Shown: positions 9,704 to 56,852, numbered from the whole stretch's first letter. The stretch: DNA of 58,711 nt, filler included, from Sphacelaria rigidula (GCA_964200075.2; 6 parts of 6 records of this genome joined end to end with filler, not necessarily neighbours in it); one strand, 5' to 3'. Notes: generated by a model from the letters alone, not told the origin. Program-made: numbers and translations.

Positions 9704-9803
9704 NNNNNNNNNNNNNNNNNNNNNNNNNNNNNNNNNNNNNNNNNNNNTTAATTAATTAANNNNNNNNNNNNNNNNNNNNNNNNNNNNNNNNNNNNNNNNN
9801 NNN
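9704..9803. other. Artificial scaffold linker (N44-TTAATTAATTAA-N44)
   Basis: 100 nt containing a six-frame stop cassette. Confidence 0.99.
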
Positions 9804-19506: not shown

Positions 19507-19606
19507 NNNNNNNNNNNNNNNNNNNNNNNNNNNNNNNNNNNNNNNNNNNNTTAATTAATTAANNNNNNNNNNNNNNNNNNNNNNNNNNNNNNNNNNNNNN
19601 NNNNNN
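19507..19606. other. Artificial scaffold linker
   Basis: N44-TTAATTAATTAA-N44. Confidence 0.99.
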
Positions 19607-29308: not shown

Positions 29309-29408
29309 NNNNNNNNNNNNNNNNNNNNNNNNNNNNNNNNNNNNNNNNNNNNTTAATTAATTAANNNNNNNNNNNNNNNNNNNNNNNNNNNNNNNNNNNN
29401 NNNNNNNN
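29309..29408. other. Artificial scaffold linker
   Basis: N44-TTAATTAATTAA-N44. Confidence 0.99.
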
Positions 29409-31339
29409 GTCCCGAAACACCAAGCTGCGGAGAGATTCCGTCGTCTCTTCTTGCCTGTCGCCAACACGAAGATCGATTTCTCTCTGCCTCTCCTTTTGGA
29501 CAGGACGCTCCTCTGTGCGCTGAAAAATATGTCGTTAAAAAAATAGGGCATTGTTCCCGTCACTGCTACTACTGTTCTCTGTCAGACACATGCCAGGAAG
29601 GGCGGTGCTGCGGCAATAACAGATAGATCGAATTTGAACTAACGGGGTGTTTTTCATCGTTGATTTTCGCCGACCTCTCCCAACGGGGTGCCCGAGCAGA
29701 AGAGCAGAAGGGTCTGCCACACGCCAGTTGAGGGGGGTGTATGAGAGATCAAACACTTGTTGGGACCTTTTTGACATGCGAAGTGAAAAAAGATACCTAT
29801 GGTGGGGACCTAACTGTTGCAAGCGTGGCGCAAAGGCAATGTTCAGCACGCTGGTCACGTGAACAGCTCGGTACAGTATGAGTAGCTTCCCATACGTAAT
29901 AATTAATCCGATGTCAGGAGATTATGGGTCACGGCATTCAACTGCATCGAAGTCGCAAAACCTATGAAAGCTAGAGAGTGTGATCTTTATGACCTGCATG
30001 CACAAAATTGAAACGGTTCTGAAAACCGGAGGGAGGACGATCTCCCTATCCCCCAGCCAGGCATCGATGAACGAGGAAAGACTTTTACTGGTAGGTACAA
30101 CAAACAACGAGGCCCGGAGAAGTTTCTTTCCATCAAAATCTGTGTATTCCAAGCTGCAAAGGCGTTCCATGCGCATTGTTTTCTAATACAAACGGTAACT
30201 TGTCGATTTCTGTTCCGTTGTTCGAGCACTGTCCGATGCCGTTTCCGGAAAAGTTTCGTATTGCTGTTGGACAGTTTCTTCGGATGTTTGACTGGACCCG
30301 AAGCGGCTGTGTACTATATAGTGGATTCACGTTTGAAATCGGACAACACACCTTATCGCTTGTGACCTTGTGCGAAGGTCAGCGTTTCTGCGATCCCTGG
30401 CGGCTTGTTGGCGCTGTTGCTGCCGTTGACCAGTACTGGGTGAAGAATCTTGCTGCCGACCCATGAGAGGTATACGCTCCGCACGTAAACTCTCTCGGGG
30501 AAGAGGTGTAGACGTAGATGACCGACCGCCCACGGAGTGCCGGGAGTCACGACCACGAGGACCCCGAGGGCGATGAGTTCTGGTCCACCAGTGCAAGCAA
30601 CCGGAGTGGTGGCGAAGAACGATCTCTGCCCCCGGCGAGCACGGTCAGATGGAGTGCCACGTGATCGGGGTATGTCGCCGTTATTTCCATTGGAATTTCG
30701 CGCCACTGTTGATACAGCATTTAGAAGGAGCAGTACTAGTGCGATATGTGGCATACTCAGTACGACTGCGGGTGTGCGTTGAGCCCAGTGCAAGGGGTAC
30801 ACCGATGTGTATCAAAACACGTTTACTTTGTCGTGTAGGTACAGATTCGGGAGTTTCCTGGAATTTTGAAAAAGAGGTTCGAGGGAGTATACTAGATGCA
30901 TGTAGCCCCTGGGACGATAGGCCACAATTTCTGAACGCACAGGAAACGGTGACAAGAACACACGTGTGGATGTACTTGATGAAGGAGATCTCTAATTTTG
31001 TATGCCGTACGTTTATTTTGCTTCCGTGTTGACAGAGATCTACCATTCCGACGTAGTTTTGGTGCGCGTGTAACATCTCTCCGACCCACCGTCCATGCAG
31101 CGCCGGGCACAGCCGAAATAGCAGCCATGGGTCAAACTCAATTTAGGGAGGACGAAATTACCTGAAACTTCGTGCGGATCCTGATACTACCTACAGATGC
31201 GCAATGAAGTGGTTTCTAGCGTGAAGGACACTTGATATGAAAAAGTACAAGGGTTTCTCCCGTGGAATGACAAGGGATCACCACCACCAACACCACCATT
31301 TTTTTATTTTCCACACGGATACCTCTCTCATGTCCCTGA

Positions 31340-31470
31340 GAGAAAAACAAACAAAAAAGGAAGAACCTCCTGTGTTGACCTTCCTCCTGTATGACACCGG
31401 CTGATGCGCCCACATATACCGAAAGGTGTAGACTGGCACCCAGAATACATGGGACAACACACAATACACA
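31340..31470 (+). mobile_element. 5'-truncated copy of the SINE at 3240-3586
   Basis: CTCCTGTGTTGACCTTCCTCCTGT.TGAC.CCGGCTG.TGCGCCCACAT.TACCGAAAGGTGTAGACTGGC is the reverse complement of 3270-3345. Confidence 0.85.
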
Positions 31471-34400
31471 CTGTTGCCGAAAAACAAAAATGAGCTTCGG
31501 GGTTGGTCCGCACTCCGCGCAGACGAAACGTCGGCGCGAAGTGATGTGAACATTTTAGTGTTTATATGGTAGCCTCGAGGGTTCCGCCCTGCAGCATATC
31601 GCTTCGTGCTACAGACAATATACTGTCGACACCACCCCTCGGCCCCTAGCCGTTTACCGCCATTTTGGGAGTCCAACCCACGAACTACCTGACGAGATGA
31701 CCACACCGAATCCCCCCGTTTCAAACCTCCCTCGTATTGATGGCTGATACATATCCGCGACAACTGGCTGACAGATTCTAACGCAAACTATCATGTTTAC
31801 CGAAAAGGAAGGAGTTCGCGACGAAGATGGCGGCTGACAAAAACTTGCTCCTATTTGCAAAACTTCAACATGCGCCGACGATCCGATGGAAGATAATATC
31901 CACGAATATCTTGCGGTCGGAGACTCCAACGTACGACATACCCTGACCCCACAGATAAGAACTCCTTCACTCCAAGGGCGAAAAACGAAAAACGAAACAA
32001 CACATCCTCGAAGCCATGTCAAGTCAAGCGTGCCTCAAGTTGCATTCACCGGTACATGCATCCACCACCCAAAACAGCACTTCACATAAGAACACAGCTA
32101 CGAGAAGCGTAAAACAGCCTCAACAGGGGTCGAGAGATCAAACGCTTGTCACACTACAAGGGCGTGCGCAGTGCACGAGACAACCTCGAATAAGAAAGCA
32201 GTACAACACAGAAGACTCGCCGGTGGAGAACATAATGATACACATACCACTGCGCACCCGACCAACTCCTGTGTCAATGTTCAATGTTTTCACTCGCTCT
32301 TCTACCAAGACACCCTTCAAACCAGGGCAACATCCCTCATTTCAGCACTCAATTGCCTCGCGTGTAGCCTTGAGGCATGAGCGGCATCTGAGATAGGCTC
32401 GACAGGGCCCCGTACCCCGAGTCGTTGCCACCCAAAAGCTCCGCGCCTTCTTCTTCTCCGTAAGGTTCGTCCTGAACCAAAACGAACATAATCCGCGAAG
32501 AGAAAAAATAAAACAAAACACAAAAAACACGACCATCCGTTTTTGTACACAAGGTAAAAGAACATGGTGAAACACACAGAAATTAACACTACAGGAGACA
32601 GTAGCTCCTGGCCCATATCCAAGACTTGTTCTGTGAGATCAAGACATACACGTAATATCTCGTAAAATCTTGAATATTATCAGGGGGACAGAGGGGGGGG
32701 GGGGGTATTCATTTTTGTACAAACCTACAAAAACAGTGCCTTCGGAACAGCACACGCCAGAGTAAAAGACATGCCCAATCAGATCCAACCCGATCAGATC
32801 TGCTTTTGGCTTTCACACACCATACCAAGGAGATTACAGCGCTGGAATTCTGGTCGCGAAAAAAGCTTGAAAGAGGGCTGATTTTTTGCGCCTTGTATAA
32901 ATTCTTTTCATCAGAACAACGCAACGGACGGACTCGTAGGTGGGGATGCGTCGAGAGACCACGGGTGGAGGGGTCGCGAGTCGGCGTTGAGTGACGCTCT
33001 GCCTCCGATACCGTGCCGGTTGTCATCCTGGCCGAAACGGGCAACAGGATGGCCGAGCACCACGAAACGCAAAAACACAAGAAAAAAAAACAGAAAAATA
33101 TGTAGTCGGAGTGCGTAAGCAGAATCAACGGAAAACATTAAGATGGAAATGGAGCCTGTTCCGGCGTAAAAAATGTAATTTCAGTATCTCAATCAACTCT
33201 TCGGTGGAAAGTTCACCCCGGCAGTCGAGATCGAAATTGTGTGAAGAAAACTAACGGTGTGATGATAGATAAGTGTGACGCGTACGGAGGGTATTTCCCA
33301 CGTTCGAGTATTTTCAAACATAGTACTCAGTCATACTTACGTTGTATGGAGTGTTGCGGTTTGAGTATCGCAACACAAAATCTGGGAGAGGGATGACAAA
33401 CCCTGGAAAATAGATGACACTATCAAAAAGTGCGCGTACAGTATCGACTTCTGCGTCCCTTGCAATAGATTATATTTTCTATATTGTACGCAGTAAACTT
33501 TTTGACGGTTATCTCGTGTCCAGGGTGTGGAGAGTAAATACCCCGTTATTTACTCTATCCGACATCCCCTTGGTAACTTTTACCTCCTTCCCGGACAAAA
33601 TCTTTGCAATTCCGAAGATTAGGCAGAAGGGGAGACTCCAACATCACACAAAATGAGGCCACTGGGCGCACTCAAATATCCAAAGATGAAGTTGGTCCAC
33701 GTATTGAAAGTACGGTTCACGATGCCGAGCAGGCATATGTGTACACTATTTTCCAAATATTGGGGGTTGACCGCGAGTGAGAAAAATCCGATGGATTGGT
33801 GAACAAAAACAGGTGTAGCAGCTGAGTATTATAGTTGCGTGAAAACTACGCAACTCTCCAGAAATAGAGCGGAAGAAAAACATCAGTTCGCCTGACCAGT
33901 CGTCTACGGACGGTGAATCACTCCTGGAGAAAATGCAGCGTCTTTATAGGGTGGTTTCCGGCCGATGATAAATTTCTTTCTTCAAGGCAAGAAAGGCTAG
34001 GCTGTGTGTGTATGCGTGGACTGGAATGGACTGGGATATTCCACCCACTGTATACGTGAGTGCCACCAATTGGTCACGTCAACGGGAGCCAAGTCCCCAC
34101 TTCGAAGTCAGTTCGCATGTCATGAAAATATACGAAAGAAAAACACACCAGGGTGATTGAGGACACTTAGATTTACTGAGATCCCCCCCAGATCCGGGCA
34201 AATCTGTCTGTGCATGTGCATATACGCTTTCCAGGACATTTCCACATGCCGATCAAATGCATTCGTTGGACCGATGGACTGTTTTTTCCTCAAAGTATTG
34301 ATGCCACTATTTGAGGACTGCAGAAAGCTGGGGTTCCCACTTCAATGCAAGTTCTTGTAAGCAAAAGTTGACCGCCTTCAGCGCTCATCTTAACGAACTC

Positions 34401-34737
34401 GAAGAAATGTAGGATGTTGATTCGCCGCGACACCACACCTGGGGATGACCGATCAACATGCTGTTCTTCGACGCATGATTTGTTACATAGCTCCTTCACG
34501 GATGATCAAGATTGAGCAGTACTCGGAGAAGACCGCACGCAGTCAAATTTCTGGGATCTCATGCCACTTGCATCTTTTAGCACGACACACCCACCATACG
34601 TCACTCCAGCAATATCGTCCCACGAGTTCCCATCCGTCTTCACACCGTGACAACAACAACTTGTGTGAGTGCAGCTCAATAAAAAGATATATTACTAGCA
34701 TATTTTCACCATGCGGAAAAACGAATCAACACATGAC

Positions 34738-34978
34738 GTTTTCGTGAAATTGAGAGTAGCTTTGGCCATTCGCTCCAACTTTGCCATTTTTTCATTTCGT
34801 GTGTGGTTACAGCTACAGGTCGATATCCTACTCGGGGATATCAAGGGCGTCAGGGGCAAGATACTACAGAAGGAAAATCGGGCCTCGCGGAGAGGTATTT
34901 CGGAACTGAAACGATTCATTCACTAATTGACCGCTTTTCACTCTTAATCGTATCCTCTGCTCTCAATCTCACGAGAAC
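34738..34978. mobile_element. MITE with ~22-bp TIRs
   Basis: GTTTTCGTGAAATTGAGAGTAG ... CTGCTCTCAATCTCACGAGAAC; second copy at 39821-40118. Confidence 0.8.
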
Positions 34979-36051
34979 AGTTACATTTGGATGATAATTT
35001 TATTTGGTGTGATACGTTCCGGTCCGACACTTCCCATCCTTTGACTCATAACACGCACCCGCAGAACGATGCCTCTCGCCCTCTGCCTCTTCTCGTAGTA
35101 CAACCCGCCGCACGAAAGCAAGATCGCGATGGCGTACAGCAATGCTGACAAAACGGCAAGCGGTCAGACAGCACCACACGAAGGGAGCAGAACACCGCGG
35201 ACACGATGCGGGTAAAACGGTGCGGAGCATTACACCGCGATGGGGCAATTTTGATGCTGTACTGTAGCTGGTGAGCACGAGACGATGTCAGTATTCTTCA
35301 CGTAGACAACAAATACGAAGACAAAACGATGACACTTTTTTCACGGCTTCATTAGATTGCTGAAATATCCATGTGCAGGAAGGAAGGGAGGGAGGGAGCA
35401 CGCACCGAACAAAATTTCACGGTTAGGACGAATAACGTCGTGATTCGACTCATATTCATTATTCCACTGAATAAATCATACGATTCGTACACCATCTGTA
35501 ATTATGCAGGTTTTGAGCTCGTGACTCGTGCAGTACATGTCAAAGCTGTCTGTTTCCTATCTCTGTTCATAGGGGGTACGTCATGGGCACATATTCATCC
35601 CCTGTACTGCATATGGAATGATTCGATTATACATGCCACCCACTCTTAATTTCATGAGGCGTGAATGGCATATACAACTTGCCATGTGTGACTCGTTCGA
35701 GGTGAGGGCCCGTATATGTTTCCCACCTTCGGATTAATGCGGGGCGAAGAGTCGGCACTTCCCTCCCATCTGTAATGCGCGCAAGATGCCTGCACTTCGG
35801 ATGTTATCCGCCCTCGGGTTTATGCGGTACCAACAGTCGGCATATGGTTGAATCCTCTCATTTCATGGGGAGTCAACTCGTATGAACTCTGATTCGTCCG
35901 AACCGTGCAAAATTCTCGACAGGAAAAAAAACAGGAATACAGGATACACCTATCCTGTTGGGGGTCATCAACACATACGCAACACTCAGAAGTGGCACAC
36001 GTTCACGAGTCGGCCATGACATGTTCTTTTTGCCATGAAAATGTTTCTGGG

Positions 36052-36605
36052 GACCCGTCCCCGAAGCGCTTGCAGTTCTGAGAGCTAACGACGCCGTGCC
36101 TCGACAGCAAGCTTTCAGGTAACATTCCCCTAGTCGTGCGCTCAGGTAATGTCTCCAGGCGGCTTCTAGAGCTTGTATACGTCGTCACCGGGGAAAACCA
36201 CGTGAGCGCGCGATTAGGGGAAAGTTACCTGAAAGCCTGTTCTTGTTCAGGCACACCGTTCGCAAAAGCTTGCAGCGCCTCAAGAATCGGTCTGCACAAT
36301 CATCACGGCGGCACATAAATAAAAATGACAACGTTTCTATAACCCGAGCCTTCTGAAACGCATCTGCAGACTCGTTCCCGGAACGTTGGTAGCTCTCAGT
36401 GGAAGGTGTGCCTCGACGACGACAAGCTTTCTGGTAACTTTCCCCTGGTCGCGCACTCAGGTGATGTACGCCACGTATATAAGCGCTAGAAGTCGTCGAG
36501 AGACGTAACATGAGCGCGCGACTTCTATAGGGGAAAGATACTTAACAGCGTGTGGCTGTTCAGGCACACCATTAGGTAAGAGCTTGCAGCGCCTCAGAAA
36601 TCAAT
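36052..36605. pseudogene. Four degenerate LRR exon cassettes, family A (+36052-36118, -36229-36291, +36370-36433, -36542-36605)
   Basis: Translations resemble GPxPEALxxLxELxxxCLDxNKLSG. Each +/- pair converges on an intron with inverted donor arms GTAAC(A/T)TTCCCCT..TCG.GC.CTCA ... TGAGCGCGCGA..AGGGGAAAGTTAC. Frameshifted. Confidence 0.7.
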
Positions 36606-36768
36606 CTGTACAAGCATCACAGCGGAAAATGAATCAAAACGAACGACGCTTTTAAAAGCAAGCCTCCCACGACATGTGATGGCACACTCGCCAACGCGTG
36701 AGCAACCACGTGTGCAGAAATGGGAAGCATCATGCAGTTTAGTCCAAGCCCATTTCACGACCATGCAG

Positions 36769-36840
36769 GCGCAATTCCCGACTCCCTAGGACAGCTGGGG
36801 AACCTGCAAGAACTTTACCTTCACAACAACGACCCACGCG
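36769..36840 (+). CDS. Intact 72-nt phase 1-1 LRR exon (GAIPDSLGQLGNLQELYLHNNDPRG), ROCO/LRR-receptor type
   Basis: CCATGCAG acceptor, 24-aa plant-type LRR consensus, donor G|GCGAGG (GC donor). Confidence 0.8.
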
Positions 36841-37033
36841 GCGAGGCTCGTGAGAAAATCAGTATGCACGGGAGCAGGGGCAAGATTCGACCTCGACGGA
36901 TTAACGTAGACTGGGGTGCCGTTAATGTCCTTCAGTGACTCAAGAATATCAACGGCACCCCAGTCTATGTTAATCCGTGGAGGTCGAATCTTGCCCCTGC
37001 TCCCGTGCACATTGATTTCCCCACGAGACTCGC
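36841..37033. repeat. Palindromic intron segment between convergent LRR exons
   Basis: ~96-bp arms, centre ~36937; both ends start with a GCGAG(G/T) donor. Confidence 0.95.
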
Positions 37034-37105
37034 CGCGTGGGTCGTTGTTGTGGAGGTGAACCCCTCCCAGGTTGCCAAGCTACGCTAGAGACTCTGGGAA
37101 CTCGC
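37034..37105 (-). pseudogene. Antisense 72-nt LRR exon (GEFPESLA*LGNLGGVHLHNNDPRG)
   Basis: Exactly 72 nt, donor G|GCGAGT, acceptor mutated to CAC, internal TAG. Confidence 0.85.
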
Positions 37106-37251
37106 GTGCATGGTGGTGGAGATGGGCGCGAATATTCGACAATGTTCCCATCACTTCCAGATCATGTGTCCCGCCCACGCGTGCGGGAGAAGCACGCCGT
37201 AAGATCTACAGAGATCGACACGTTCCTTCCCAATTCCCCAAAACCGTGCGG

Positions 37252-37666
37252 GCAAAATCCCAGCGTCGCTAGTATAGCTCAGCAAAAGCTGCAAACAACT
37301 TCATCTCCACAGCAGTGAACTACTCGGCGAGTCTCATGGAAAAACTTCGGAAGACTCGCCGCGTAGGCCGTTGTTGTGGAGGTGAAGCCCTTCCAGGTAT
37401 TGCCCAGCCCACATGGACACGCCGGAATTTCGACCTGCATGGGATTGAAAATGGGCGTGGACATATTCGATGATGTTTCCCACCGTTTCCATGTGTCCCG
37501 GTCACGCGTGGGTGAAGAGCATGACCTAAAAGCGTTTCCGATACAAGATGTACCATTGTCGATACTGAGCGGTTTGAGACCCGCCGCGTGGGTCTTTGTT
37601 TCCGGGGTGAAGCACTTGCAGGTTCCTGCAGGTTGTCCAACCACCCTGGCCACGCCGGGATTTCCC
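37252..37666. pseudogene. Three damaged LRR exon cassettes (+37252-37326, -37360-37434, -37585-~37666)
   Basis: GKIPASLV*LSK.., EIPACPCGLGN..LHLHNNGLRG and GEIPAWPGWLDNLQ..LHPGNKDPRG. The palindromic intron of the first pair is collapsed to 33 bp (37327-37359). Confidence 0.8.
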
Positions 37667-37868
37667 CACATGGTTTTGAAAATGGGCGTGGACATGTTCG
37701 ATTTTTCCCCTATTGTTTTTATACACGTGTCCGTCTATGCGCGGGAGATAAGCATGTTTCAGAAGCTTTTGCAAAGCAACACCTACGGAGCTTGATACCC
37801 TGGAAGAGAGAAAAAAAAAAAAACGTTCAACGGTGCCATCCACTTTCTCATTCCCCAAAACCATGCAG

Positions 37869-37943
37869 GCAAAATTGTGGCGTCGCTAGGAGGACAGCTG
37901 GGCAACCTGAAAGAGCTCCACCTCCGCAACAACGGCCTGCGCG
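37869..37943 (+). CDS. Open 75-nt phase 1-1 LRR exon (GKIVASLGGQLGNLKELHLRNNGLRG)
   Basis: CCATGCAG acceptor, G|GCGAGT donor, one extra in-frame codon. Confidence 0.75.
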
Positions 37944-38137
37944 GCGAGTCTCGTGATAAAATCAGTGTGTACGGTAGCAGGGACAAGACTCGCCCTCTCG
38001 TACCGAATGATGTTATTGGATTCCTTTCATGTCTTTCAGTAACCGAGAGACATCAACAACATCACACTCGACATTACCCGGTAGAGGTCTCATCTTGCCC
38101 CTGCTTCCACACACGCCGACTTCTGCATGGGACTTGC

Positions 38138-39039
38138 CGCGTCGGTCATTGTTGTGGAGGCGAAGCCCTTTCAGGTTGTCTAGCTACCCCAACCATGCAT
38201 GGTCAAGGAAATGTGCGTCGGCATATTCGACGATGTTTCCTACCGTTTCCAGATCATGTGTCCCGCCCACGGGTTGACGGGAAGCATGTTGTCAAAGCGT
38301 TTCCGAGACAAAATCCACCACTTTCGATATTCTCGACCAAAACAAAAAAGACACATCATTCAACGGTGCGGGCCACGGACAAACTTGCCTGTCCATTCTC
38401 GCTACCATGCAGGCGAAATTCCCGAGTCCCTAGGACAGCTCAGCAACCTGGGGAAGCTACACACCTCCGCAACAATGATCTACGCGGCGAGTCTCGTGAG
38501 AAAGTTAGCGTGTGTGGGTGCAGGGGCGAGATTCGACCTGCATCGAACAACGTTGACCTGGGTCCCCTTCATGTCCCCTAGTTAACTAAGGGACATCAAG
38601 GGGATCCAGGTTGACGTTATTCGGTACAGGTCGAATCTCGCCCCTGCACCAACACACGCTGACTTTCTCACGAGACTCGCAGCGTAGGTCATCGTTGTGG
38701 AGGTGAAGCTCTCCCAGGTTGCCCAGCTACCCTGGTGACGTGGGAGTTTCCCGGCATGGCTTCGGAAATCGGCGTGGACATATTCGATGATGTTTCCCAC
38801 CGTCTTCAGATGAGTGTTTTGCCAACGCGTTGGCGAGAATTATATGCCCGAAGCATTTGTAAGACAATATCTACGGAGATTGATACTCTGGAAAAAAGCA
38901 AGACAAGTCATTCAACGGCGCCACCCACAGACAAACGTCCTTTCTCATTCCTCAAAAACATGCCGACGAAATCCCGGCGTCGCTAGGACAGCTCAGCAAC
39001 CTGGGGAAGCTACACACCTCCGCAACAATGATCTACGCG
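38138..39039. pseudogene. Four further LRR exon cassettes (-38138-~38195, +38413-38486, -38681-38751, +38966-39039)
   Basis: LG*LDNLKGLRLHNNDRRG; GEIPESLGQLSNLGKLH(fs)LRNNDLRG; ..G*LGNLGELHLHNDDLR; EIPASLGQLSNLGKLH(fs)LRNNDLRG. Palindromic intron 38487-38680 centred on TAGTTAACTA. Confidence 0.85.
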
Positions 39040-39109
39040 GCGAGTCTCGTGAGAAAGTTAGCGTGTGTGGGTGCAGGGGCGAGATTCGACCTGCATCGAA
39101 CAACGTTGA

Positions 39110-39209
39110 NNNNNNNNNNNNNNNNNNNNNNNNNNNNNNNNNNNNNNNNNNNNTTAATTAATTAANNNNNNNNNNNNNNNNNNNNNNNNNNNNNNNNNNN
39201 NNNNNNNNN
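39110..39209. other. Artificial scaffold linker
   Basis: N44-TTAATTAATTAA-N44. Confidence 0.99.
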
Positions 39210-39661
39210 CACATGGATTTTTTGCCCACTGATTGTTCACTTTTGGGACGTTTGAGCCACTTTTTGACCCCCAAACAGGGAAAATCGCCAGAACACGTCT
39301 TGGACACTTTGCATCACCCCACAGAGAGGAGCCTGGCCCACTTTTCAGATTCACTTTGCTCCAAGGTTTCGAGAGCGGCCGCTGAACAATAATCCGTGTG
39401 CAATAAAATCTACGGCGATCTCCACAGGTTGTTGGACAAACTGACAGGGGTCGGCAAGCACAGGTTGTTGCACACGGATGATTGTTCAGCGGCCAGTCTC
39501 GAAACCTCGGAGCCAAGCGAATCTGAAAAGTAGGCTAGGCTCCTCTCTGTGGGATGATTTAAAGTGTCCAAGACGTATGTTGGCGATTCTCCCTGTTCGG
39601 GGGTCAAAAGGTGGCTCAAACGTCTCAAAAGTGAACAATCCGTGGGCCAAAAATCTGTGTG
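39210..39661. mobile_element. Foldback/MITE with ~190-bp inverted arms
   Basis: CACATGGATTTTTTGCCCAC...CCGTGTGCAA pairs with TTGCACACGG...GTGGGCCAAAAATCTGTGTG. Confidence 0.85.
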
Positions 39662-39679
39662 CTATTACTACATCCGGCC

Positions 39680-40378
39680 TGAACAAAAAGAATGAGTTTC
39701 AACTAAAAAAAAAGCAGTGCTTTCCCTGACCTAACGTCACGACACATGACTTTCATATGGACGACTTCATCCCTCCCGACCTCCCAAAATCTATTTCGGA
39801 GGGTTTCCAGCTTTAACAACGTTTTCGTGAGATTGAGAGTAGAGCGCTGATTGAGAGTGGCTTCGGTAATTCGCTTCAACCTAGCCAATTTCTCATCCCA
39901 TGTGTGCTTTTTTTTGCCTCCATCACTAGCGTGTACTCACAGCTACAGACAATACACGTCGATATCCTACTCAGCGATATCAAGGGCCTCAGTGACAAGC
40001 TACTACAGAAAGCATATCGGGTCTTGTGGAGGGGCATTTCGGAACTGAAACGACTAATTAACTAAATGATCGCTTTTCACTCTCAATCGTATCCTCCACT
40101 CTAAATCTCACGAAAAACTTGTTCTTTCTGTTTCCCCGAAGGGTATGTGCGAAAGCACGATTTTTGCACCACCAAAAAGCGTCCCTTTTCTCACCCCGAA
40201 ATCGAGGCAAAATGTTATTTCGCGCATACCCTTTGGGGGAACGGAAGGCTAGAAATCCCCCGAAATAGTTTTAGAGAGGTCGGGAGCGATGAGGTGGTCC
40301 ATATATATGAAAGTCATTTGCCATGACTTTAGGTCAGGGAAAGCACTGCTTTTGAGTTGAAACTCATCTTTTTGTTCA
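39680..40378. mobile_element. Foldback/MITE (~130-bp arms) with nested MITE 39821-40118 and a small IR at 40131-40240
   Basis: TGAACAAAAAGAATGAGTTTCAACT...AAGCAGTGCTTTCCCTGACCTAA pairs with TTAGGTCAGGGAAAGCACTGCTT...AGTTGAAACTCATCTTTTTGTTCA. Confidence 0.85.
39821..40118. mobile_element. MITE, second copy of the 34738-34978 family
   Basis: TIR GTTTTCGTGAGATTGAGAGTAGAG / CTCCACTCTAAATCTCACGAAAAAC; shared internal GTCGATATCCTACTC..GATATCAAGGGC. Confidence 0.85.
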
Positions 40379-41057: not shown

Positions 41058-42011
41058 ACAACCACACCTATAACGGTATCGAAATAATGCTTCGCTACCG
41101 AAGGTTATGACAGCATAGCATGCTATATTGATCATCATAACCCTTTGGACACTTCAAATATATATGGAGTAGGAGATGTTTGTGTCGAAGAGTAATTTCG
41201 CCTGTTCAGGCATGCGGTCAGACTCGTTGGTCTTTCTCTCTAGTCTCCTTACAAGTCATGGTCTTTGGGAGCGACATTGTCTACCGCGTTGTTGGTGGCA
41301 GTGTAGCATTTTTATGCCTTACAAGCACACAACGGAAGTGCAACACTTGAATCTGACCAGATTCACCTAGCGAGCTTTGCCACCCCTACCTCCTAGTATG
41401 TTGTCGTCCGAAGGCAGGGCTCAACAACGTTTGCACCCGAGGGTTAGAGCGGACACAAATGCGGGTTAATCGCGCTCGTTACACGCAAATCTTCCAGCCA
41501 TCATCACAAGCTGACAAGCCTTTCACCCAACCACAACACACAACAGGCACATCTACAGTCCCTCTACAGTGGAACCGTAAGGGTCAAGGGCAACGATCGA
41601 CGTATCAGTCGAACTCAATCCATCTCACCAGCTCATGCGGGACGTCAAATGGCAGCACCGAATGCACGTGAGTGTGGAATCCTGTACTCATTCAGCTCGT
41701 TCGCCCTCGCGTTTAATCATCCCTTGTGCTAATTTCAAGTATCAGAGTAAATCTAACACAACTCTCACACTGCGATGATGGATGTCTTGAACGCCACCGT
41801 GCAACGCCACTGTGGGTGCGGGTATGGCTACAGCTTACAAAGCAAAAGCGTAGCCTGCTGACAGTGGTGAGGTTCCCACAATTCCCTGTTGTCACTCACA
41901 CGCTCTTCCGCGCGCACTCTCTCTCACTTGTCTCGACGTGTATCGCGATGTGTCGGTGACTGTTGCAAGAAACAGCCGGCGGAGAAGAAGGTGAAGACAC
42001 GGAAACAGCTG

Positions 42012-43930
42012 ATGATGCGCGGCGGGGCACCAAAAAAAGCAAGAGACGACGACCCAACCTGCCACTCTTCCACGGAGGAAGATTCTGATCAGCTCATGCA
42101 TCACCCGTGGTGTGATAACCAGAGGCGTGGCGTCCCTGGTCCTGCCTCTAATTCTCGAGAGAGTGGCCCTTCATCCCCGTTTTCTCCTACCGGAGGCTCT
42201 TTACAGCTTGTTTGCGGCAGTGGAGACCGTCCACTATCAAACATCAAGGCACGACGAGTTGCCATAGCCCGTGGTACAGCACCAGTAACACCAGCAGCAC
42301 TAGCAGCACAATCAACACCACCAGGCTCTCTTACAATGGAAGAAATGTCGAAGGGCACATTAACGGAAGATATGCTCCGCGCGGTCGCTGGAACACAACG
42401 GCTAGAAACGGTGACGCACCTCGAGCTTGTGATCGACAGCGCGGAAACCCCGAGTGTGGCAGGTGTCTGGCCATCGGTACCCTCGCTGCACACTCTAGTA
42501 CTGAATGGTAGCAGGCTCATGAGCTTTCGGGACTTGGGCGTTGGCCTTCGGAACTTGCATACGCTTTCCCTGGAGTATTCGGGTATCGAAGATTTGGATG
42601 GTATCGGAGTTTTGTCCGAACTGAAGGAGCTGCGCCTGGCAAACAACAATGTGTCCGATGTAACCCCCCTTGCTTGTCACAGCCATCTACAAGTCTTGGA
42701 TCTCGAGCAGAATCGCATTGGAAATGTGAAGGAACTGGAGATTATGGGCACAATATCACTACTGTATAGGTACGTGTGTATACCTTGTGGTGTCGCGCAG
42801 GAATCGGATCAGGAAAGTTGTGTCGTCGAGAGAGAGTCCATCAGCTTGATCATAGCAGGTCAGGATATATCTAGTCTATGGTTTGTACGAATGCCGTGTG
42901 GACTACCGGTCGTGTACCAAGATCCCGGAGTCCTCAACGTTTTTCTTTCCCTTGAGTATTTTCCTCGTTGCTCATGAGGCGGACCTACAGCAGCACTTCA
43001 TACTTTGGGCTTGAACATTCTTCCTTTCCCGCGGGTAATATGACAAAACATTTAACATTCATCTCACCTCTTCGTTCCGGCTTCGACATTGATGCTCAAG
43101 TATCTCAGTAGAGTGCATCAGGCATGTGCCCCTGGCGGTGTATTTGGGTAAGACTTGGGCCTTCCCCCCTCTCTCCCTCCCTTTCATGACTGCATACCCA
43201 AAGCTTGGGGGGAAATAAATCACCCAACAATAAAGAGGTCGATTTGAAAGAGACTGACGACACAAAAACAAAATGCCCTGAATATATAATTTGTCAATTC
43301 CCCTCGAACCATCAATCTCTCATTTCTCTCACGCACAGCTTGAACTTGAATCAGAATCCGCTGATGAGTTCACTGGGTAAACTTCCGGGAGGACAGGGCC
43401 GGGGGGTTGTCCATCGCCTCATACCTCAACTGCAGGTCCTCGGTGGTACATCTCTCTCCGTCCTCGAGATAGACATTGTCGACGCGGATGCGTTATTGCG
43501 AGACACCAACGCCTTGGCCTGGGAGGGTGCATCTGGAGCACGGACCGCCTGGGAAGAGAAAAACGGTGAAAACGTGACAGTCCCGTGCGCTGGGAGAAAT
43601 GGGTGTCTGGAGAAGAAAGAGGCCGCGAAAACTACGTTGTCCCCGGTTCTTTCGAATTCGCCAGACAGGGGGCGGCGGCGACTAAAGCAGAGAGAGCGGA
43701 ATGGTGGCGAGAATGTTCTTAAAGCCTCGCCGGATCGAGGGATCGTGCACTGGGACAGTGACTTGACACAGGGTGGTTGTCCCGCATTTTCTGGGAAAGC
43801 GAGGTAAACTAATACTTGACTAGAAAGTAAGGTGATGTTCACACATAAATATGGGCCAGGTCAGTTGTTGCAAGTATACGCTCACAGCATTCGTTGATCA
43901 CCATATGAGTTCGTTTGTGCAAGTATGCAT

Positions 43931-43999
<69 letters not shown>

Positions 44000-46094
44000 C
44001 GTGCGCGCGCGCGTCCTGATGGCTTATGTTGTAGGTACTGAAGTACAGAAGTTGAACGGTCGGGTCATAGAGCATGGGACGGTGCACATGCTATAAATCG
44101 CACTTTTAATCGGAATGAAGTGTTTCTCGTCCAACGATAACCTTGAGTTTCAGATGACTGTGGTTATGAAGTGTTGTGAAATGAAGAAGAGGGGTGTTTA
44201 ACGGGACGTACGGCACCAAGATTCGCAATCTCGAGGCACTTTTGCCGCAGAATCTCAGATAACCTTGGCTTTCACTGGATCCCATGTTGTCTTTGAACCC
44301 CACGCGATCGCATTGACAGTTCAGCAATCAGGCGGTATAAAGTGGGTGGGGATAATGATGCGCGACAGAGACTACCAAGCCCGCAGGGCGTCTTGGACAC
44401 GTTGAACCTCGCCAAGCAAATGGAGCTAGGGCTACAACACAGGCGAGAACAGAGCAAATATAATCAGCACACGGCACGGTAAAGAGGAGTACTAATTCGT
44501 TAAAGTTACTATCGACGGGGTCGTTTGCGAGATATCCCAGCCAGAGCGGACGCGGCCACGTAAAAGACAGGGGCAGCTGTTTGCACCATAACCGCTGTTG
44601 CCAGTGACGGTGATCACGCCTCCATACGCGACGGATGAATCACGTGTTCACTCGACTCCTCCGCATCCGTCGCACGAACTTTCGATACACAACATCAATA
44701 CGGCAGGCAGAACCAACTAGAAGATCGAGTTTTGGAATGGCAACGAGAAATAAGCTCTGAATCTCTCCCGCAGGGGGAGCAAATAATTCCCCCGCCGTAC
44801 CCTTCCACAAACGTCAGCGAATCCTCCGAATCAAGCCCGCAAGTGAGGGCAGTCACAGATATCAGTTTGTTGGGGAGCACCAGAAATTATCTTCAACACG
44901 AACTAGAGGAAGGACGAACAATAGATATGCGAAAATGCTGGAGTGGAACTTGGGCCTCGACTTCGACGGATGGAGAATTGGCCAACGCGGAGAAGGAGGA
45001 AGAGAGGGGGAGGGGTGACGGTTCTGTTATTGGTATACGAAACGATCCCAACGCCGGAGACTTTCCCCTGTCGAGTAGGCCATGGACGACGGGGCACGTG
45101 GTGGGTGGTAGTTCGGGGTTGACATCACCACTATCGTTGCCGGTGTCACCGCGGAGCGGGCGTACGATCTCATCTTCGAAACCGGTGATGGAAGCGACAC
45201 GTGACATTCACGATGGCAGCCCGGCAAAAAATGAGGCTGGCACCGTTAACAACGAGAAAAAGGTGAAAGGGGAGAACCTAGGGACAGGGGTGAGAAAAGG
45301 GGGATATCTGCAACAACGCCGAACCCAATGCCGGCGACCTCAGACCGCGGTAGAGCTCGGTCGACGGCGGCATAGAGGCCACAGCGGCGCTCTCATTGTC
45401 GGAGAAGACGGGTCGACTTTGAGCGCGGGTTGGCTACATGTTTGGGAGTCGCTGCAGACGGCGGGTCTGCATGAGACGAACGTGTCCCAGGAAGCAAAAT
45501 CACCGCCTACATCTTCCCGCGATTATTCTCCCTCAGTCAGATCGCCCATCACTACGTCTACTAGTGCGTGTCCCGTCACCGGCCGCGTGCAAGGCAGAAG
45601 AGTCGATTTCCGGAGCCAAAGACAAACGCGGCAAATAGTCAGGACGAGGTCCGCGGGTCTGCGAAGAGGGGACAGCATCAGTAATGCCGTCGCTGCCATT
45701 CAACCGAGCAGTGGGTCATCTACGGAAGCAGACGACGACGAGCAATGCAGCGTTACTTCCGAGGAAAACGATAACGGTCGAGATGAGATGAAGAAAAGAG
45801 CGGCGGCGTTTTTGAATGTTAAACCAAGGACACCATCCGACGACCGCGGCGCTGGTCCCGATTCTCGCAACAACGCCGCCACTAGGCGACCTATCATGGC
45901 ATGTGGTCGTCCAGTTGAAATGGCTCAAAGCGCACATCGAGATGCACAGCCTGAAGTTCATCGGCGCGAAGTACCTCGAGCTGCAGGGGTGGAGGAGGGT
46001 ATAATCTTTTCGGCAAAAGGAGCACACAGGCGAACACGGAAAGGAAATCGCGGGAGGACAACGGCATCTCGTCGGTCGCTAGCAACGATGGACG

Positions 46095-46128
<34 letters not shown>

Positions 46129-47438
46129 CGAAGGGGGCGATACACATCGGCAGAAGCCAAAGCGGCCGACCAAGGGTGGCCGTGTCGGTGTCGATGGTTG
46201 TAAGAGTGGTAGCAGTAATGTTGGTAATTGCGGTAGAGGTGCTGATGTCAGGGGTGAGAACAATCGAATATACGACCGCGGATCTGGGGGGAGCTCCGTC
46301 GCCGCTACTGCTGGGCGCAGCGGTGCAGCATCGCGGCGCGTTTCTTCCGTTCATGCTGCCAGTCGAATGCTGGGCTTCGACCTAAGAAAGTCGCTCGCAG
46401 CGATCAATGAGTGGACGCAGAAGGCGACACTCGTCACCGTCGACGGCGGGCAACCCGATATTTATCGAGCAGGAAAGGTCGCGCGGCGTCCGCCAAGTTT
46501 CGGTGTGGTAAGCGTCATTGACGAAACAGTGGCGTCCCCGTACACGCCCTCCTCGCGCCATCCTTGGTCGGCAGCGGTAGACGTGAGCGGTACGCGGAAC
46601 CGTAACAATAGCCACCGCGACCATCTCATAAAGAAGGAAAACAGTCGACAACCAAATAGGGAGACGCAACGGAGCGGTGGTCGTCCTAGAAATACGTGCG
46701 GGACAAAGGGCAGTCCCTCTCTCGAAGCCTCCGGCCATCATGCCTTCGGCGGCGAGGACGGCAGCGAGGATGAGGAGGTGCTGAGCATTGCAGCCGCGAG
46801 AGCAGCGCTTGGCATCAGCAGGGGCCAGGGTACGAGTCGACATAGCGGAACAGCGACCGCTGCCACATCGACCGGCTCCTGTTCTACCAAGTCATCAAAG
46901 CAGGGCAGGATGGAAGCAGGGAAGTCCGAGGCATCTGGTGGCGAGGACGAGACACATATACCCAGGTATCCATCGGCGTCCGAAGTCGACGCTATCGTGG
47001 AACTTGCCGAGGCCGCCGCAAGCGCTAGCGGCGACGAGCATGACGACTGCAAGGGGCCGGTGGAGAGGAGATTTGAGGGGAGGAACAACAACGGTAGGGG
47101 AGGGGGGGGGGGTAGCAGACAAAAACGCTGGAGACAGCAGACGGCGAAGAAGCGCAAGAGAAGTTTCTTCTGATGCAAAATCATTGTCGAGCAATACGGT
47201 TGAAGGTTTGGCTGTAAGCATGTCCGACGAGGCCCTCGAGAACATGCTGCGAAGGCAGCCACGCACGGTGCCGGAGCTTCGGACGAAGGACAGCTTTCGG
47301 TACTTCTTCAAGGGCATGCAAGCTGAGCGCATGAGTCGGCTGCTGCGCGGGGCGTACGACGGGACACTGCCGCCGGGAGAGGTGGATTTGAAGGTGGAAA
47401 AACGCCTCGGGCTTGTAGGCGACATGCTAGCGTGGTGA
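42012..47438 (+). CDS. LRRC56: LRRC56/ODA8-like ciliary outer-arm dynein assembly/transport factor; exons 42012-42769, 43339-43803, 44320-44478, 44707-47438 (frameshift in poly-G 47102-47112)
   Basis: LTEDMLRAVAGTQRLETVTHLELVIDS..LHTLVLNGSRLMSFRDLGVGLRNLHTLSLEYSGIEDLDGIGVLSELKELRLANNNVSDVTPL..LQVLDLEQNRI..SLNLNQNPL matches the LRRC56 LRR pattern. All three introns are GT-AG and phase 2-compatible. The motif SDLTQG..FSGKASSAIRR is restored across exons 2/3. The start codon is inferred. Confidence 0.85.
43935..43997. repeat. (GT)n microsatellite in intron 2
   Basis: ~31 GT units. Confidence 0.99.
46097..46123 (+). repeat. (AGC)9 coding repeat (poly-Ser)
   Basis: In-frame run in exon 4. Confidence 0.95.
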
Positions 47439-48910: not shown

Positions 48911-49010
48911 NNNNNNNNNNNNNNNNNNNNNNNNNNNNNNNNNNNNNNNNNNNNTTAATTAATTAANNNNNNNNNNNNNNNNNNNNNNNNNNNNNNNNNN
49001 NNNNNNNNNN
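48911..49010. other. Artificial scaffold linker
   Basis: N44-TTAATTAATTAA-N44. Confidence 0.99.
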
Positions 49011-50199: not shown

Positions 50200-53100
50200 A
50201 GCAGAAGATGAACAAGAGCGCGTCTCGGACTTCGTCTTCCGTGTCCGCGAAAAAAAGCACATCATCCACCCATGTCTTGCATTTTAAGCTGGCGAGCGGT
50301 TCTGTCATGATGTCTTGAAAATATGTCGTGGCATTCAGCACACCTTGCGGCACTCGCTTCGGGGTAAACAAGCCAAACGGAGTCGGGACTGTGCAAAATC
50401 TCCTACGCCTCATCCGCCAATGGCATCTGTCAGTAACCTTGGAGGAGGTCCAACTTGCCAAAAAACGAGCACTCAACAGATCACGCATGTCTGACTATTG
50501 GTTGGGCATCACACCCGGCAACTTTTCAACCTGCTCATTCACTGCCTTGCAGTCGCTTACCAGGCGAAACGAGTCTTTCTTCGAAACCGCCAGCGCCGGA
50601 CTAGACCACACCGCCTGCAAGCTCCTGAGCACCCACCCGGGCACCAAAAGAGCCGCCATGCATGACGCCAACCATCTCGACTTCACCGGATCGTACCGCC
50701 GCGGCTTCGTCTTCACCGCGGACGCCCTAGGTTTCAGCTGAACACACATGGGCTCCATGCGCGTAGAGGGATCACCCCGCAGCGCACGACGAAACGCGTT
50801 GGCGCAGCTATGCAATATGCCGCGCAGGCGCTCCGCTTTCGAGACGCTGAGGCCTTTCGCCACAGCATTCGTCACGCTCTCCTCCAGCGCGACCTCCCGA
50901 GCAGACTCCTCTTCCGCCGGATCCATGAACATCTCCGGGCCGCGCTCTACGAAGCGTTCCACCGCCGCATCCCGCTCCTCGGTCACCTGCCCCCAAGCCT
51001 CCTGAAAAGCATCCACCGACAAGCTCATGCAACGACTGCCCAAAAAGGCGGGCGTCTCCACGTGCGAACCAGGCGGAGATATCCGCGTCTTGATGGAGTC
51101 CTGCAACCGCTCATACGGGTCGACTCCAAGATCCTGAAACGTCGGCAATCCCAGAAGAATGATGCCATCCGACCCTGGCATAATCGCAAACGAGATCGGA
51201 GGCAACGGCGCCGGCCCCCAGGCAGTCGTGGAAGCCAGCTGGAGCGGAACAGTGCGCTCTGTGACGGAAACATGCTGACCCGACGCGGTGACAGCCTGCC
51301 GCGCCCCGAGCGTAAACGGGATGCGCAGCGGCACACCCGGCAGAAGACATTCCAGCATCCCTACAATCTGCACCAACAGACTCACATGTTTGGTGAAGTG
51401 GGCGAGAGAATCCCACATAGCCCGAACCGCATTGGCTCCGCGCTCCCGTTGATTTGAAAGACACAGCTCCACAGGAACGTACTTGTCCGCAAACTCCACA
51501 GGCACTTCATCTGCCGACCGATGCGCCGCTAATCCCGCTTGACGCCACGGCTGCGCAAGCTGCGCAGGTGAAGACGCTCCGGTAGGTTCAAGCGGCGCGG
51601 CCGGCGGGTATGACCCCCAGCCAGCAGACCAAGAATTTGGCGCAACTTCGACCAGCGCATCAGCAGGCGTCGCGCCTGACGCTGCTGCCGGAGTCATCAC
51701 CAGCGTCGCCATCGGCGCAACCACCGGCGCGGGCGCAGTGTTCGACACTATAAAAGTCGGTCCCACCTGCCCGCACGTTGCGGAGCAGTAGCACCTACGG
51801 CGGCGCCGGACCCAGAACCAGACCCATGTTGACGCCGCCGCCGCCGCTGCTTCTGCTGCTGCTGCTACTGCTGAGAACTCGACCGCAACCGTCCGCCGCC
51901 GGAGGATCCGCCGCCGCCACCACCCCGATCACCTCGTCTTTTGCCCTTGTGCTGTCGCTGCTGATGGTGCGCGACATGAGACTGCTCAGACTCTCGACCG
52001 GAAGACGCTGGGCAATCGCGCGCGTAATGGCCGACCTGATCAAAGCGGTGGCAGGTGATGGTTGCAGCACGGCCGGCCGATTTTGAGTCGTGGTGGCGCA
52101 AAGACTTCGGCGTGGAGGTGGACGACTGGCTGAGCACCTCTATCTTCCGCCACCCCATGGCCTCGGCCACGACGGTGTCCATCACCAGGTAAGGGTCGGC
52201 CTTCCAGTCTGTTCCGTGCTGCAACTTTACAAGCACGGCTTGCTTGAATTTTTATGGCGTTAACCCCTCCACCAAACCCTTGGTGATTATGGTAGCTGGG
52301 CCGGGAATAACTTCACCATCGGGTGAACGATATACTACTTCCACGTTCGCATGTTCTGCGAAGTATTTCTCTAGACTGGGCAGGATTAGCTTCACCCGCT
52401 CTAGCATCATCTTTCCTCGATACTTCATGGCGACAACTTTCGCCACGGCCGCGGACGCTTGGGTCAACTCCACCTCGGCGCCCGCCGTATGCCCAGCATG
52501 CGTTTTGATCGCGGCAACCAACTGCGGTGGGGTGATTGTGCTCCCATCATGTTTCACCCGCGCAAACACGCTTTACACATGCGTCGGCACCTGTAGAGCC
52601 ATCGACACTACCTGATATCGCAATGTACCCCCCTCGTTAGCGTGCTCCACACGCTTTCTGCACTCCGGGTACTTCGTATACAAAGTGCGAGATGCGCTCT
52701 CGGAGTACCTATTCCCGTATTGGGGAGGTCACAACCCTTCCCGCATAACCACGGGCGTCACGCTGGACGTACTACGTGAGTCGGTCGCCATAGCTGCAGC
52801 CGGCTACCTGCAAACCTTTCGCAGGCCAGCGGACCTTCGCGAATTGCACATTTCCTTGCTTCGCCGCCGCACCATACAGGGGGTAGGGTCCTCCAAAGCC
52901 TCGCTGATCGTAGCTTCAGCAAGTCTCCAGTCTGGATCAATCACAGGCCAGCCGCCTTTCTGCAGCTACCATCAGCTTGAACCCCCTCCACGCATCCGTG
53001 ATGCTTCAGGTTGTCCCCAGCTGCCAGACTCCTCCGCCAAAAATCTTCCAGCAGGTTCCGCTAGGTACCATCTCTAGTACTAACACTAATATCGATATTG

Positions 53101-53370
53101 TGACGCCAGCCAGAAGAAGAACTGGTGGATCACTGCTTTTGAGAGACTCCCCAGTCTCACTGGCTTCAGTTACTATTTGTCAATCTTTACAACATCTCAT
53201 TATCAGGAGGAGTACTCTTCCAGGCACCAACCTCCTAGACACGCAGAAAATCATCCCCGTGTCCCCGATCATTATCCACAATTCTCCCAGAATCCTCCAG
53301 AATCCCCGTGCTCCCAGTCATTATCCAGATCATCGCTACCAACTCAATGTAACGGCGTATTTTCCTCACA
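50200..53370 (-). mobile_element. 3'-truncated Ty3/Gypsy element: probable 5' LTR, gag, protease and RT N-half
   Basis: Gag with degenerate knuckle CHRFDQVGHYARDC; protease remnant VRAMWDS..ILLGLPTFQDLG; RT motifs WSSPALAVSKKDSFRLVSD, RVPQGVLNA and WVDDVLFF. Stops and frameshifts present. Confidence 0.9.
53099..53370 (-). repeat. Probable 5' LTR (272 bp) of the 50200-53370 element
   Basis: Minus strand begins TGTGA and ends TCACA (terminal IR). It starts exactly where the neighbouring integrase ORF breaks off. No second copy in the window. Confidence 0.55.
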
Positions 53371-56300: not shown

Positions 56301-56405
56301 AAGTACGAATACGTGTCTTATGGGTGAAGCATCGAAAGCGACAGAGTTGTCTAAGTACATGATGAGGTGTTCGAGGCCGTCGGTGACTCGTTGCATCAGA
56401 CGTTG

Positions 56406-56852
56406 TGTTACGGCGGATATCGACTGTATATGTAATAGGCGTTTCGAAGTACGCGTGGCAAGTGCAGTAGGTCTTATTCCATTCGCATGTTGGTGTTGTA
56501 TTCCAATTGGGCGTCTTTCACCGGAGCCCTCGCCCCTCACAACTTCCATCACCCAGCAAATTCAGTTGTAGCTAACCAGTAGCCAAGCCTAATGACAAAG
56601 CTATCAGCCACCACTTGGAGACATCTCGCTTGCAAGCAAGTCAAGAGCACCTCTCTGCACACGAAAGCGAGTCCCTGCTTGGCCTTACGATGCAGTGCTG
56701 GCCGGACTCAAAGGTCTGTTACTCACGAGTTCAAGGGTCATTCCTCTCGACTGCAATTGTTTACCATACCCAGCCGCTGACCCCGTGTCACCCCTGGCCT
56801 AGCATGTTCTTCGAGAGTGAAACCAGTATCACCTCGTGATCAGACCACGACA
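56406..56852. mobile_element. Solo LTR (447 bp) inserted in RT
   Basis: TG...CA ends; 4-bp TSD GTTG (56402-56405 and 56853-56856); removal restores GYFQRLM. Confidence 0.9.

Follow-up and report, generated by a model that had tools for sequence, protein, structure and literature searches.

The window analyzed here, i.e. the whole stretch of 58,711 bases from the brown alga Sphacelaria rigidula (GCA_964200075.2), is made up of six ~9.7-kb contigs joined by five 100-nt artificial linkers. At 36052-39109, in the piece covering 29409-39109, it carries an array of short cassettes, each encoding a single leucine-rich repeat (LRR), which are arranged as sense/antisense pairs across introns that are palindromic to varying extent. 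A preliminary description of this DNA had proposed that the array is an invertible, shufflon-like exon system for receptor diversification. According to our analysis, it is probably a largely dead tract of LRR exons left behind by inverted and tandem duplication, and some of its palindrome arms have exchanged sequence.

Local alignment of 36769-36840 to 35900-39109 identified ten cassettes of one family (B), and donor motifs together with inverted-repeat mapping defined four cassettes of a second family (A). No DNA similarity between the two families was detectable. The 14 cassettes follow each other in the order + - + - (family A) and + - + - - + - + - + (family B), exactly as the preliminary description had it. 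A scan for the LRR motif in six frames over all 58,711 bases gave seven matches, and all seven were located within 36227-38450. Cassettes and introns are as follows:

36047-36118, plus strand: A1+, family-A cassette; frame broken, no AG acceptor, donor CAG/GTAAC
36119-36228: intron of the A1 pair, 110 nt; GT donor at each end, palindromic only in the outer ~30 nt per side
36229-36300, minus strand: A1- (…CLNKNRLSG); GT donor, AG acceptor 9 nt inside the 72-nt frame
36362-36433, plus strand: A2+; AG kept, donor CTG/GTAAC, broken frame
36541-36612, minus strand: A2-; donor lost (AAG/TATC), stops in every frame
36769-36840, plus strand: B1+; 72 nt, open (GAIPDSLGQLGNLQELYLHNNDPRG), AG acceptor, GC at the donor position, LRR_8 with E 0.028
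36841-37033: palindromic intron of B1, 193 nt, center at 36937
37034-37105, minus strand: B1-; in-frame stop, acceptor mutated to AC
37256-37326, plus strand: B2+; decayed, with a stop and without AG
37360-37432, minus strand: B2-; AG kept, frame broken by an indel, 33 nt from B2+
37585-37656, minus strand: B2b-; decayed, without plus-strand partner
37869-37943, plus strand: B3+; 75 nt, open (GKIVASLGGQLGNLKELHLRNNGLRG), AG acceptor, GC at the donor position
37944-38137: intron of B3, 194 nt; central 84 nt diverged, arms 66% identical and not homogenized
38138-38209, minus strand: B3-; stop, degenerate 5' half
38413-38486, plus strand: B4+; AG kept, frame shifted by a 2-nt insertion
38487-38680: palindromic intron of B4, 194 nt, center at 38583/38584, no spacer
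38681-38752, minus strand: B4-; stop, acceptor lost
38968-39039, plus strand: B5+; frameshift as in B4+, acceptor lost, intron cut at 39109 by the contig end

The definition of a brown-algal type I LRR exon (72 nt/24 aa, starting at the G of GxxPxxLxxxxxLxxLxLxxNxLx) applies exactly to B1+ with its 72 nt, while B3+ has 75 nt; the remaining B cassettes can be aligned within these exon limits, but they contain stops or indels. Both exon ends divide the G codon 1 + 2, which gives a symmetric phase and allows in-frame shuffling. Passages of PMC11378527 name the LRR exon phase 'phase 2', and we infer that this is the general feature format (GFF) convention for the same split.

Twelve of the 14 cassettes are broken, including all five minus-strand copies of family B. 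The count in the preliminary description of only two cassettes that are open and have an AG acceptor holds (B1+ and B3+). In family B, the AG acceptor is kept in four of ten cassettes (B1+, B3+, B4+ and B2-), so that the minus-strand acceptor ascribed to the repeating unit is present in one of five copies and missing in the other four. As to the donors, three of the four family-A cassettes have GT, while at the 72-nt boundary of all ten B cassettes there is GC (GCGAGT-like) instead of GT, with a GT 12 nt further on in six of the ten. All four A cassettes are frame-broken or doubtful, and in A1- the 5' half and the 3' half read as LRR in different frames. For Ectocarpus, passages of PMC3787667 give 95.3% GT-AG introns, the remaining 4.7% being GC-AG.

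Single cassettes scored with Pfam LRR_8 or LRR_4 at E 0.03-0.06, below the cut-off, as expected because each cassette is one repeat. A protein search with the open reading frame (ORF) of B1+ gave five matches among 12 candidates, one of them ROCO-type with 70% over 20 aa; since the matches are bacterial or plant LRR proteins, the similarity is generic for LRRs. With the ROCO-type protein P0002, which looks bacterial and is a weak probe, tblastn matched the LRR cassettes only and no Roc-COR in the window. The array has no long ORF except read-through of the repeats, and the 261-aa read-through ORF had no protein match among 381 candidates. Tandem Repeats Finder (TRF) reported no tandem array in the LRR region because the units are too diverged.

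The last two plus-strand arms, 38406-38556 and 38959-39109, are 96% identical over 151 nt, which points to a recent duplication of the unit. This duplication probably explains the assembly break at 39109, where the array runs into the contig end and is therefore truncated, and it suggests that the array continues beyond the contig.

Palindromic pairs and their history

The pairs are convergent, i.e. the 3' ends of the exons face each other across introns of 110 and 107 nt in family A and of 193-194 nt in B1, B3 and B4. The underlying pattern of a donor followed by a reverse donor was matched twice versus 0.00 matches expected (100 shuffles). The following arms were determined:

36108-36147 / 36200-36239: A1, 40 nt, 88% complementary, gap 52 nt
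36756-36936 / 36938-37118: B1, 181 nt, 82% complementary, gap 1 nt
37896-37998 / 38083-38185: B3, 103 nt, 74% complementary, gap 84 nt
38462-38583 / 38584-38705: B4, 122 nt, 89% complementary, gap 0 nt

The description of the locus as type I single-LRR exons on both strands in convergent palindromic pairs is supported. The further statement that each pair is one long inverted repeat is correct for the acceptor box, the exon and half of the intron, but not for the flanks farther out, which are not palindromic. It also fails for the B2 pair, which has collapsed to 33 nt between the exon ends by a central deletion, and for B2b-, which is unpaired after a one-arm deletion. A palindrome of 475 nt, obtained as a permissive blastn estimate, was dropped after shuffle tests of the flanks. 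A metagenome scan for the palindrome with a donor at both ends yielded one locus (L001), which is GC-rich, has no LRR, is unrelated and was regarded as a chance match. Runs from two different studies have contigs that extend across the palindromes; therefore, the array is not an assembly artifact. The longest exact inverted matches are 30 nt in B1 and 24 nt in B4, located in the intron in both cases; no other pair has one above 13 nt. Short exact inverted matches of this size are poor substrates for homologous crossover.

As RNA, 38340-38830 is predicted to fold with -326.5 kcal/mol (z -24.3; none of 100 shuffles as stable) and the opposite strand with -326.8 kcal/mol (z -25.1). Since the folding energy has no strand asymmetry, there is no sign of selection on one transcript.

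For the order of duplications, the seven long arms were aligned in sense orientation and quartet sites were counted as supporting the two arms of a pair, the same strand of different units, or the crosswise grouping (pair:strand:cross):

Flank upstream of the exon: B3/B4 1:13:0; B1/B3 3:5:1; B1/B4 5:5:2
Half intron towards the center: B1/B4 15:0:0; B1/B3 5:1:0; B3/B4 6:2:1

Same-strand flanks are alike between units (B3+/B4+, B3-/B4- and B1-/B4-; score reached by none of 1000 shuffles), while the plus and minus flanks within a pair are not (score reached by 166, 979 and 182 of 1000 shuffles). The upstream flank of B1+ is a distinct sequence of its own. Because the outer flanks are strand-specific yet common to different units, the palindrome predates the amplification of the unit. 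In family A, exon quartets (strand 8, pair 1, cross 1) give the amplification signal only, with no exchange within pairs. As far as the alignments tell, they show one inverted duplication per family followed by tandem amplification. This is the very history which the preliminary description had named as speaking against its own proposal, and it is seen here in the flanks (13:1; 0/1000) as well as in family A (8:1:1).

Towards the center of the palindromes the picture is different in two of the pairs. Half-intron identity within the pair is 88% in B1 and 90% in B4, compared to ~70% for arms of other units; pooled, B1 and B4 have 172/194 identical positions (89%) versus 405/576 (70%) for opposite-strand arms of other units (p=1e-7). 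In B3, the value is 66% (p=0.4), so that its arms are not homogenized. In the exon halves, the excess within pairs is not significant (80% vs 74%, p=0.42; 71% vs 69%, p=0.77). Judged from these identities, sequence has passed between the inner arms within B1 and within B4 after the units diverged, significantly so in the intron halves only. The idea that arm exchange diversifies the exons is supported for the exchange as such, seen in the intron halves, but not for the exons.

Orientation of the pairs among samples

Sequence data for the array were assembled contigs only. As contigs drop rare variants, the comparison of two samples speaks only against common or fixed differences. Contigs of the runs X1 and X3, which come from different studies (X3 with scattered single-nucleotide polymorphisms, SNPs), are collinear with the reference over B1, B3 and B4. 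The B1 region is covered collinearly at 35884-37183, with no differences in the 580 nt of 36604-37183, and the B3 region at 37457-38459, with eight differences in X3. B4 is covered by X1 at 38430-38800 and by X3 at 38511-38656 and 38631-38800 (center and right arm). Since the two arms of a pair differ at 10-26% of positions, flipping of an inner segment would leave many closely spaced differences; no such cluster was present in the X1 and X3 contigs. Instead of both orientations among molecules or strains, as an invertible system would have it, these contigs have one orientation each at B1, B3 and B4. The 15 strand-switch joints listed, of 26 in all, were located in the repeats at 34757-35881, none of them in 36052-39109.

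Differences of X3 are similarly dense in the array (~19 in ~2.9 kb) and in the flank (4 in 808 nt). Seven of the 19 X3-specific differences in 36052-39109 were checked, and six of these are in aligned B arms. Four of the six are alleles that occur in no paralogous cassette, and two match a paralogous base, which is too few to interpret. On this sequence comparison, the X3 differences are taken as ordinary polymorphism. In the spacer between the family-A units, at 36324, X3 has a 14-nt insertion that is a tandem copy of the adjacent 14 nt, an ordinary indel polymorphism.

No run recorded as RNA contains the stretch. Runs X4 and X5, which are RNA by guess only and, being of equal size, possibly one data set present twice, have a 941-nt contig collinear with 35879-36819. 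It crosses the four family-A cassettes without skipping the introns. Coverage by these two runs is low or nil over 36820-38723, including the palindrome centers, and is back at 38724-38999; here too the kind of data is a guess.

Origin and possible role of the array

With a probability of about 65%, we consider the array to be a tract of brown-algal type I LRR exons that is dead for the most part and was left behind by inverted and tandem duplication, rather than a functional switch that flips DNA. What the alignments show is its structure, the order of the duplications and the homogenization of the arms; for the molecular mechanisms behind these, we infer three steps. In each family, a segment of acceptor box, exon and roughly half the downstream intron would have been duplicated in inverted orientation, giving a nearly spacer-less palindrome with the exons tail to tail. 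This palindromic unit, with its strand-specific outer flanks, would then have been amplified in tandem with a period of ~314 bp (A) or ~550 bp (B). Finally, the inner arms of B1 and B4 would have been homogenized by gene conversion or fold-back repair starting near the center, while B2 presumably lost its center, B2b lost one arm and the center of B3 diverged. On this reading, the array has no demonstrable present function at this locus and is at most a reservoir of LRR sequence. If the geometry does not occur elsewhere, the array is no more than a decayed stretch of repeats where a contig ends.

Several observations weigh against this explanation. B1+ and B3+ are open and have AG acceptors, so the tract is not uniformly dead, and the GC donors of the B cassettes may work, given the GC-AG introns of Ectocarpus. 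Intact exons or a Roc-COR part could sit just beyond the contig end. The convergent geometry is common to two unrelated families lying side by side, which hints at a process that recurs or is maintained and not at a one-off accident, and the homogenization, as deduced from the aligned arms, shows that arms interact physically. Moreover, the contig data drop rare variants, and the strand-switch joints seen were 15 of 26.

The cassettes have close counterparts in Ectocarpus. Passages of Zambounis et al. (2012, PMC3341825) describe ROCO genes with 72-nt type I LRR exons and, on the non-coding strand of 19 ROCO loci and 13 further LRR loci, exons of this type with conserved splice sites, some of them intact and others inactivated. 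The Sphacelaria array agrees with these passages (PMC3341825) in its 72-nt single-LRR exons starting from the G of GxxPxxL, their presence on both strands, the partly conserved splice sites, the many inactivated copies and the brown-algal origin. In contrast to what the same passages describe (PMC3341825), it belongs to another brown-algal order (Sphacelariales), consists of regular palindromic pairs in tandem units with arm-to-arm homogenization, and has no visible Roc-COR part on its contig, which ends inside the array. Exons on the non-coding strand of LRR loci are thus already known from Ectocarpus (Zambounis et al. 2012), while the palindromes that regularly pair exons tail to tail, the succession of events and the exchange between arms are new here. 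The texts of PMC3341825 and PMC11378527 contain neither 'palindrom' nor 'inverted', although figures or supplements (Figure 2B and Supplementary table 1 of PMC3341825) might show pairs. A literature search on palindromic or inverted LRR exon shuffling found nothing relevant to algae, and passages of a comparative-genomics preprint on brown algae that names Sphacelaria rigidula are silent on palindromic LRR pairs.

The pairs matter because brown algae have candidate immune receptors that are proposed to diversify via shuffling of single-LRR exons, by a mechanism left open in the passages of PMC3341825. The array offers a structural clue, as its antisense exons are the second arms of short palindromes, some of which seem to keep exchanging sequence. 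If the same geometry exists at intact ROCO loci, 'exon shuffling' becomes a testable DNA-repair model, and the pairs would also suggest where LRR-directed small RNAs come from.

In the widest form of this idea, tail-to-tail palindromes would be the general origin of LRR exons on the non-coding strand, and each pair would act in the germline as a device of two states that diversifies the LRR ligand face. If the intron following an exon broke, repair would proceed by fold-back copying, and continued arm conversion with occasional inversion would then carry sequence from the expressed exon to its antisense counterpart and back. Two unrelated families of the same geometry plus arm exchange at one locus are compatible with this generalization, which would supply the mechanism left open by the 2012 Ectocarpus paper if it were true; we regard it as unlikely.

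There is also a slim chance that the array is a hairpin-RNA locus, whose transcribed pairs fold into long, near-perfect double-stranded RNA (dsRNA) stems that are diced to small RNAs acting on LRR (ROCO-type) transcripts. In plants, proto-microRNA (proto-miRNA) genes are hairpin loci that arose by inverted duplication and yield small RNAs directed at the genes from which they derive, and the partial inverted repeats of Salicaceae ARR17 are reportedly an example of a hairpin locus. Similar to such loci, the array has an inverted copy of an exon fragment beside the sense copy and a long predicted dsRNA stem, stable on both strands of 38340-38830 (about -326 kcal/mol, z -24 to -25, 0/100 shuffles). 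Different from them, its units are repeated in tandem in what looks like a former LRR domain. Small RNAs directed at LRR genes would fit brown algae, as reshuffled LRR exons are described as likely targets of Ectocarpus miRNA families in passages of PMC3341825, and the Ectocarpus miRNAs known earlier as biased toward LRR proteins in passages of PMC3874173. Yet the folding energy is the same on both strands, stem integrity is lost in B2, B2b and B3, no Rfam family matches the window, and a process at the DNA level explains the homogenization equally well.

We give as little credence to arm recombination as the function of the array, i.e. that inversion or gene conversion moves sequence between a sense exon and its antisense twin and thereby diversifies the LRR ligand face, in the strong form as a somatic, programmed process. 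Its geometric logic, already part of the preliminary description, is sound: if crossing over took place within a pair, the 3' halves of its exons would be exchanged in frame, and the donor would be kept after the flip. The exchange between the inner arms of B1 and B4 since the units diverged and the recurrence of the geometry in two unrelated families also agree with it, and targeted somatic recombination has been proposed for LRR exon shuffling in passages of PMC3341825, the mechanism being left open. These points are opposed by the exon halves, in which exchange is not significant (p=0.42 and 0.77), by family A without exchange within pairs, and by the antisense B copies, which are all broken. 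Inverted matches without a mismatch do not exceed 30 nt and are intronic, two samples have the palindromes in one and the same state, that of the reference, and the SNP density of the array is like that of the flank. No Pfam family was found in the 10 longest (119-169 aa, 29535-33137) of 21 ORFs of at least 90 aa to the left of the array, in line with the earlier statement that no recombinase is encoded here. An operating inversion switch is unsupported, all tests that could be made speaking against it, but rare somatic inversion may have escaped the contigs.

The array can be compared with systems of known rearrangement. In the shufflon of IncI plasmids, crossover takes place at short conserved sites through a site-specific recombinase dedicated to it, and any population contains a mixture of orientations. 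The array shares with it alternative coding segments in opposite orientation, exchangeable by inversion in principle, but conserved crossover sites, a recombinase (on the 9.7-kb contig) and mixed orientations (in the X1 and X3 contigs) were not found. In the variable lymphocyte receptors (VLRs) of lamprey and hagfish, LRR cassettes of both orientations are copied into an incomplete gene by somatic assembly with a cytidine deaminase. Single-LRR cassettes on both strands as a reservoir and conversion-like copying are common to both, but here the cassettes are paired palindromes and mostly broken, whereas an incomplete recipient gene, the deaminase and somatic assembly are the hallmarks of VLRs. 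The ampliconic palindromes of the human Y chromosome undergo arm-to-arm gene conversion, so that the arms of one palindrome are most alike, and their centers tend to delete or diverge. As in these, the arms within B1 and B4 are more alike than paralogous arms, and centers were lost (B2) or diverged (B3); unlike these, the palindromes here measure ~0.36 kb instead of kb to Mb, have one exon per arm instead of whole genes, and are homogenized in two of the three full B pairs only and not in family A.

It is very unlikely that the pairs control splicing by RNA structure, with the antisense copy pairing with the sense exon and its donor and hiding them, thus causing exon skipping and more alternative splicing. 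The predicted stem does take in the exon, the acceptor box and the donor, and passages of PMC11378527 report that the LRR exons of brown-algal ROCO genes are alternatively spliced to a large extent; but there is no evidence that the tract belongs to a spliced gene, most cassettes are broken, and no run recorded as RNA contains the stretch. Least probable of all is a foldback or miniature inverted-repeat transposable element (MITE) with LRR-like sequence by chance, or an assembly artifact: a palindrome of comparable size (197-nt arms, 88%) that lies on another contig, at 39210-39661, and the high-copy repeats adjoining the array would fit an element, but the depth of the array is near single-copy, the units are in tandem and not separate insertions, the window has no further copy of the unit, and an artifact is contradicted by contigs from two studies that reproduce the palindromes exactly and by arms that are 74-89% alike, not 100% as in read chimeras.

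Surroundings of the array

Outside the array, the following features delimit the sequence:

9704-9803, 19507-19606, 29309-29408, 39110-39209 and 48911-49010: linkers (N44 + TTAATTAATTAA + N44), artificial and not biology
34684-36051: dispersed repeat segments adjoining the left edge of the array, recognized by summed contig depth

As the window is a concatenation of contigs, features touching the linkers are cut by contig ends and not by biology. Very high-copy repeat segments are located at 34684-35025 and 35368-36051, with a depth of up to ~5e5 in two runs and thousands of contigs, and an 85% copy of 34814-34974 was found at 39953-40113 on another contig. Summed depth is 21-79 in the array, ~27 in the single-copy flank and 1e3-5e5 in the neighboring repeats; being near single-copy, the array unit is not a proliferating element or transposon. 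Searches for Rfam families and for tRNAs gave no matches in the window.

The non-LRR palindrome at 39210-39661, with its 197-nt arms (88% complementary) 58 nt apart, stands at the start of the next contig and is possibly a foldback or MITE-type element. Since it has no LRR, palindromes of such scale are not confined to LRR exons in this genome. At 50495-56517 on the minus strand, there are retrotransposon remains, with ORFs matching reverse transcriptase (RT) RNase H-like (E 1.7e-18) and integrase zinc-binding (E 1.2e-09) domains. A large LRR_4/LRR_8 gene, whose LRR type differs from that of the array cassettes, is located on the plus strand at 41871-47173. Part of it is 100% identical to a 1173-aa Sphacelaria rigidula protein at NCBI ('unnamed protein product'), and its protein has 64-66% relatives in other brown algae.

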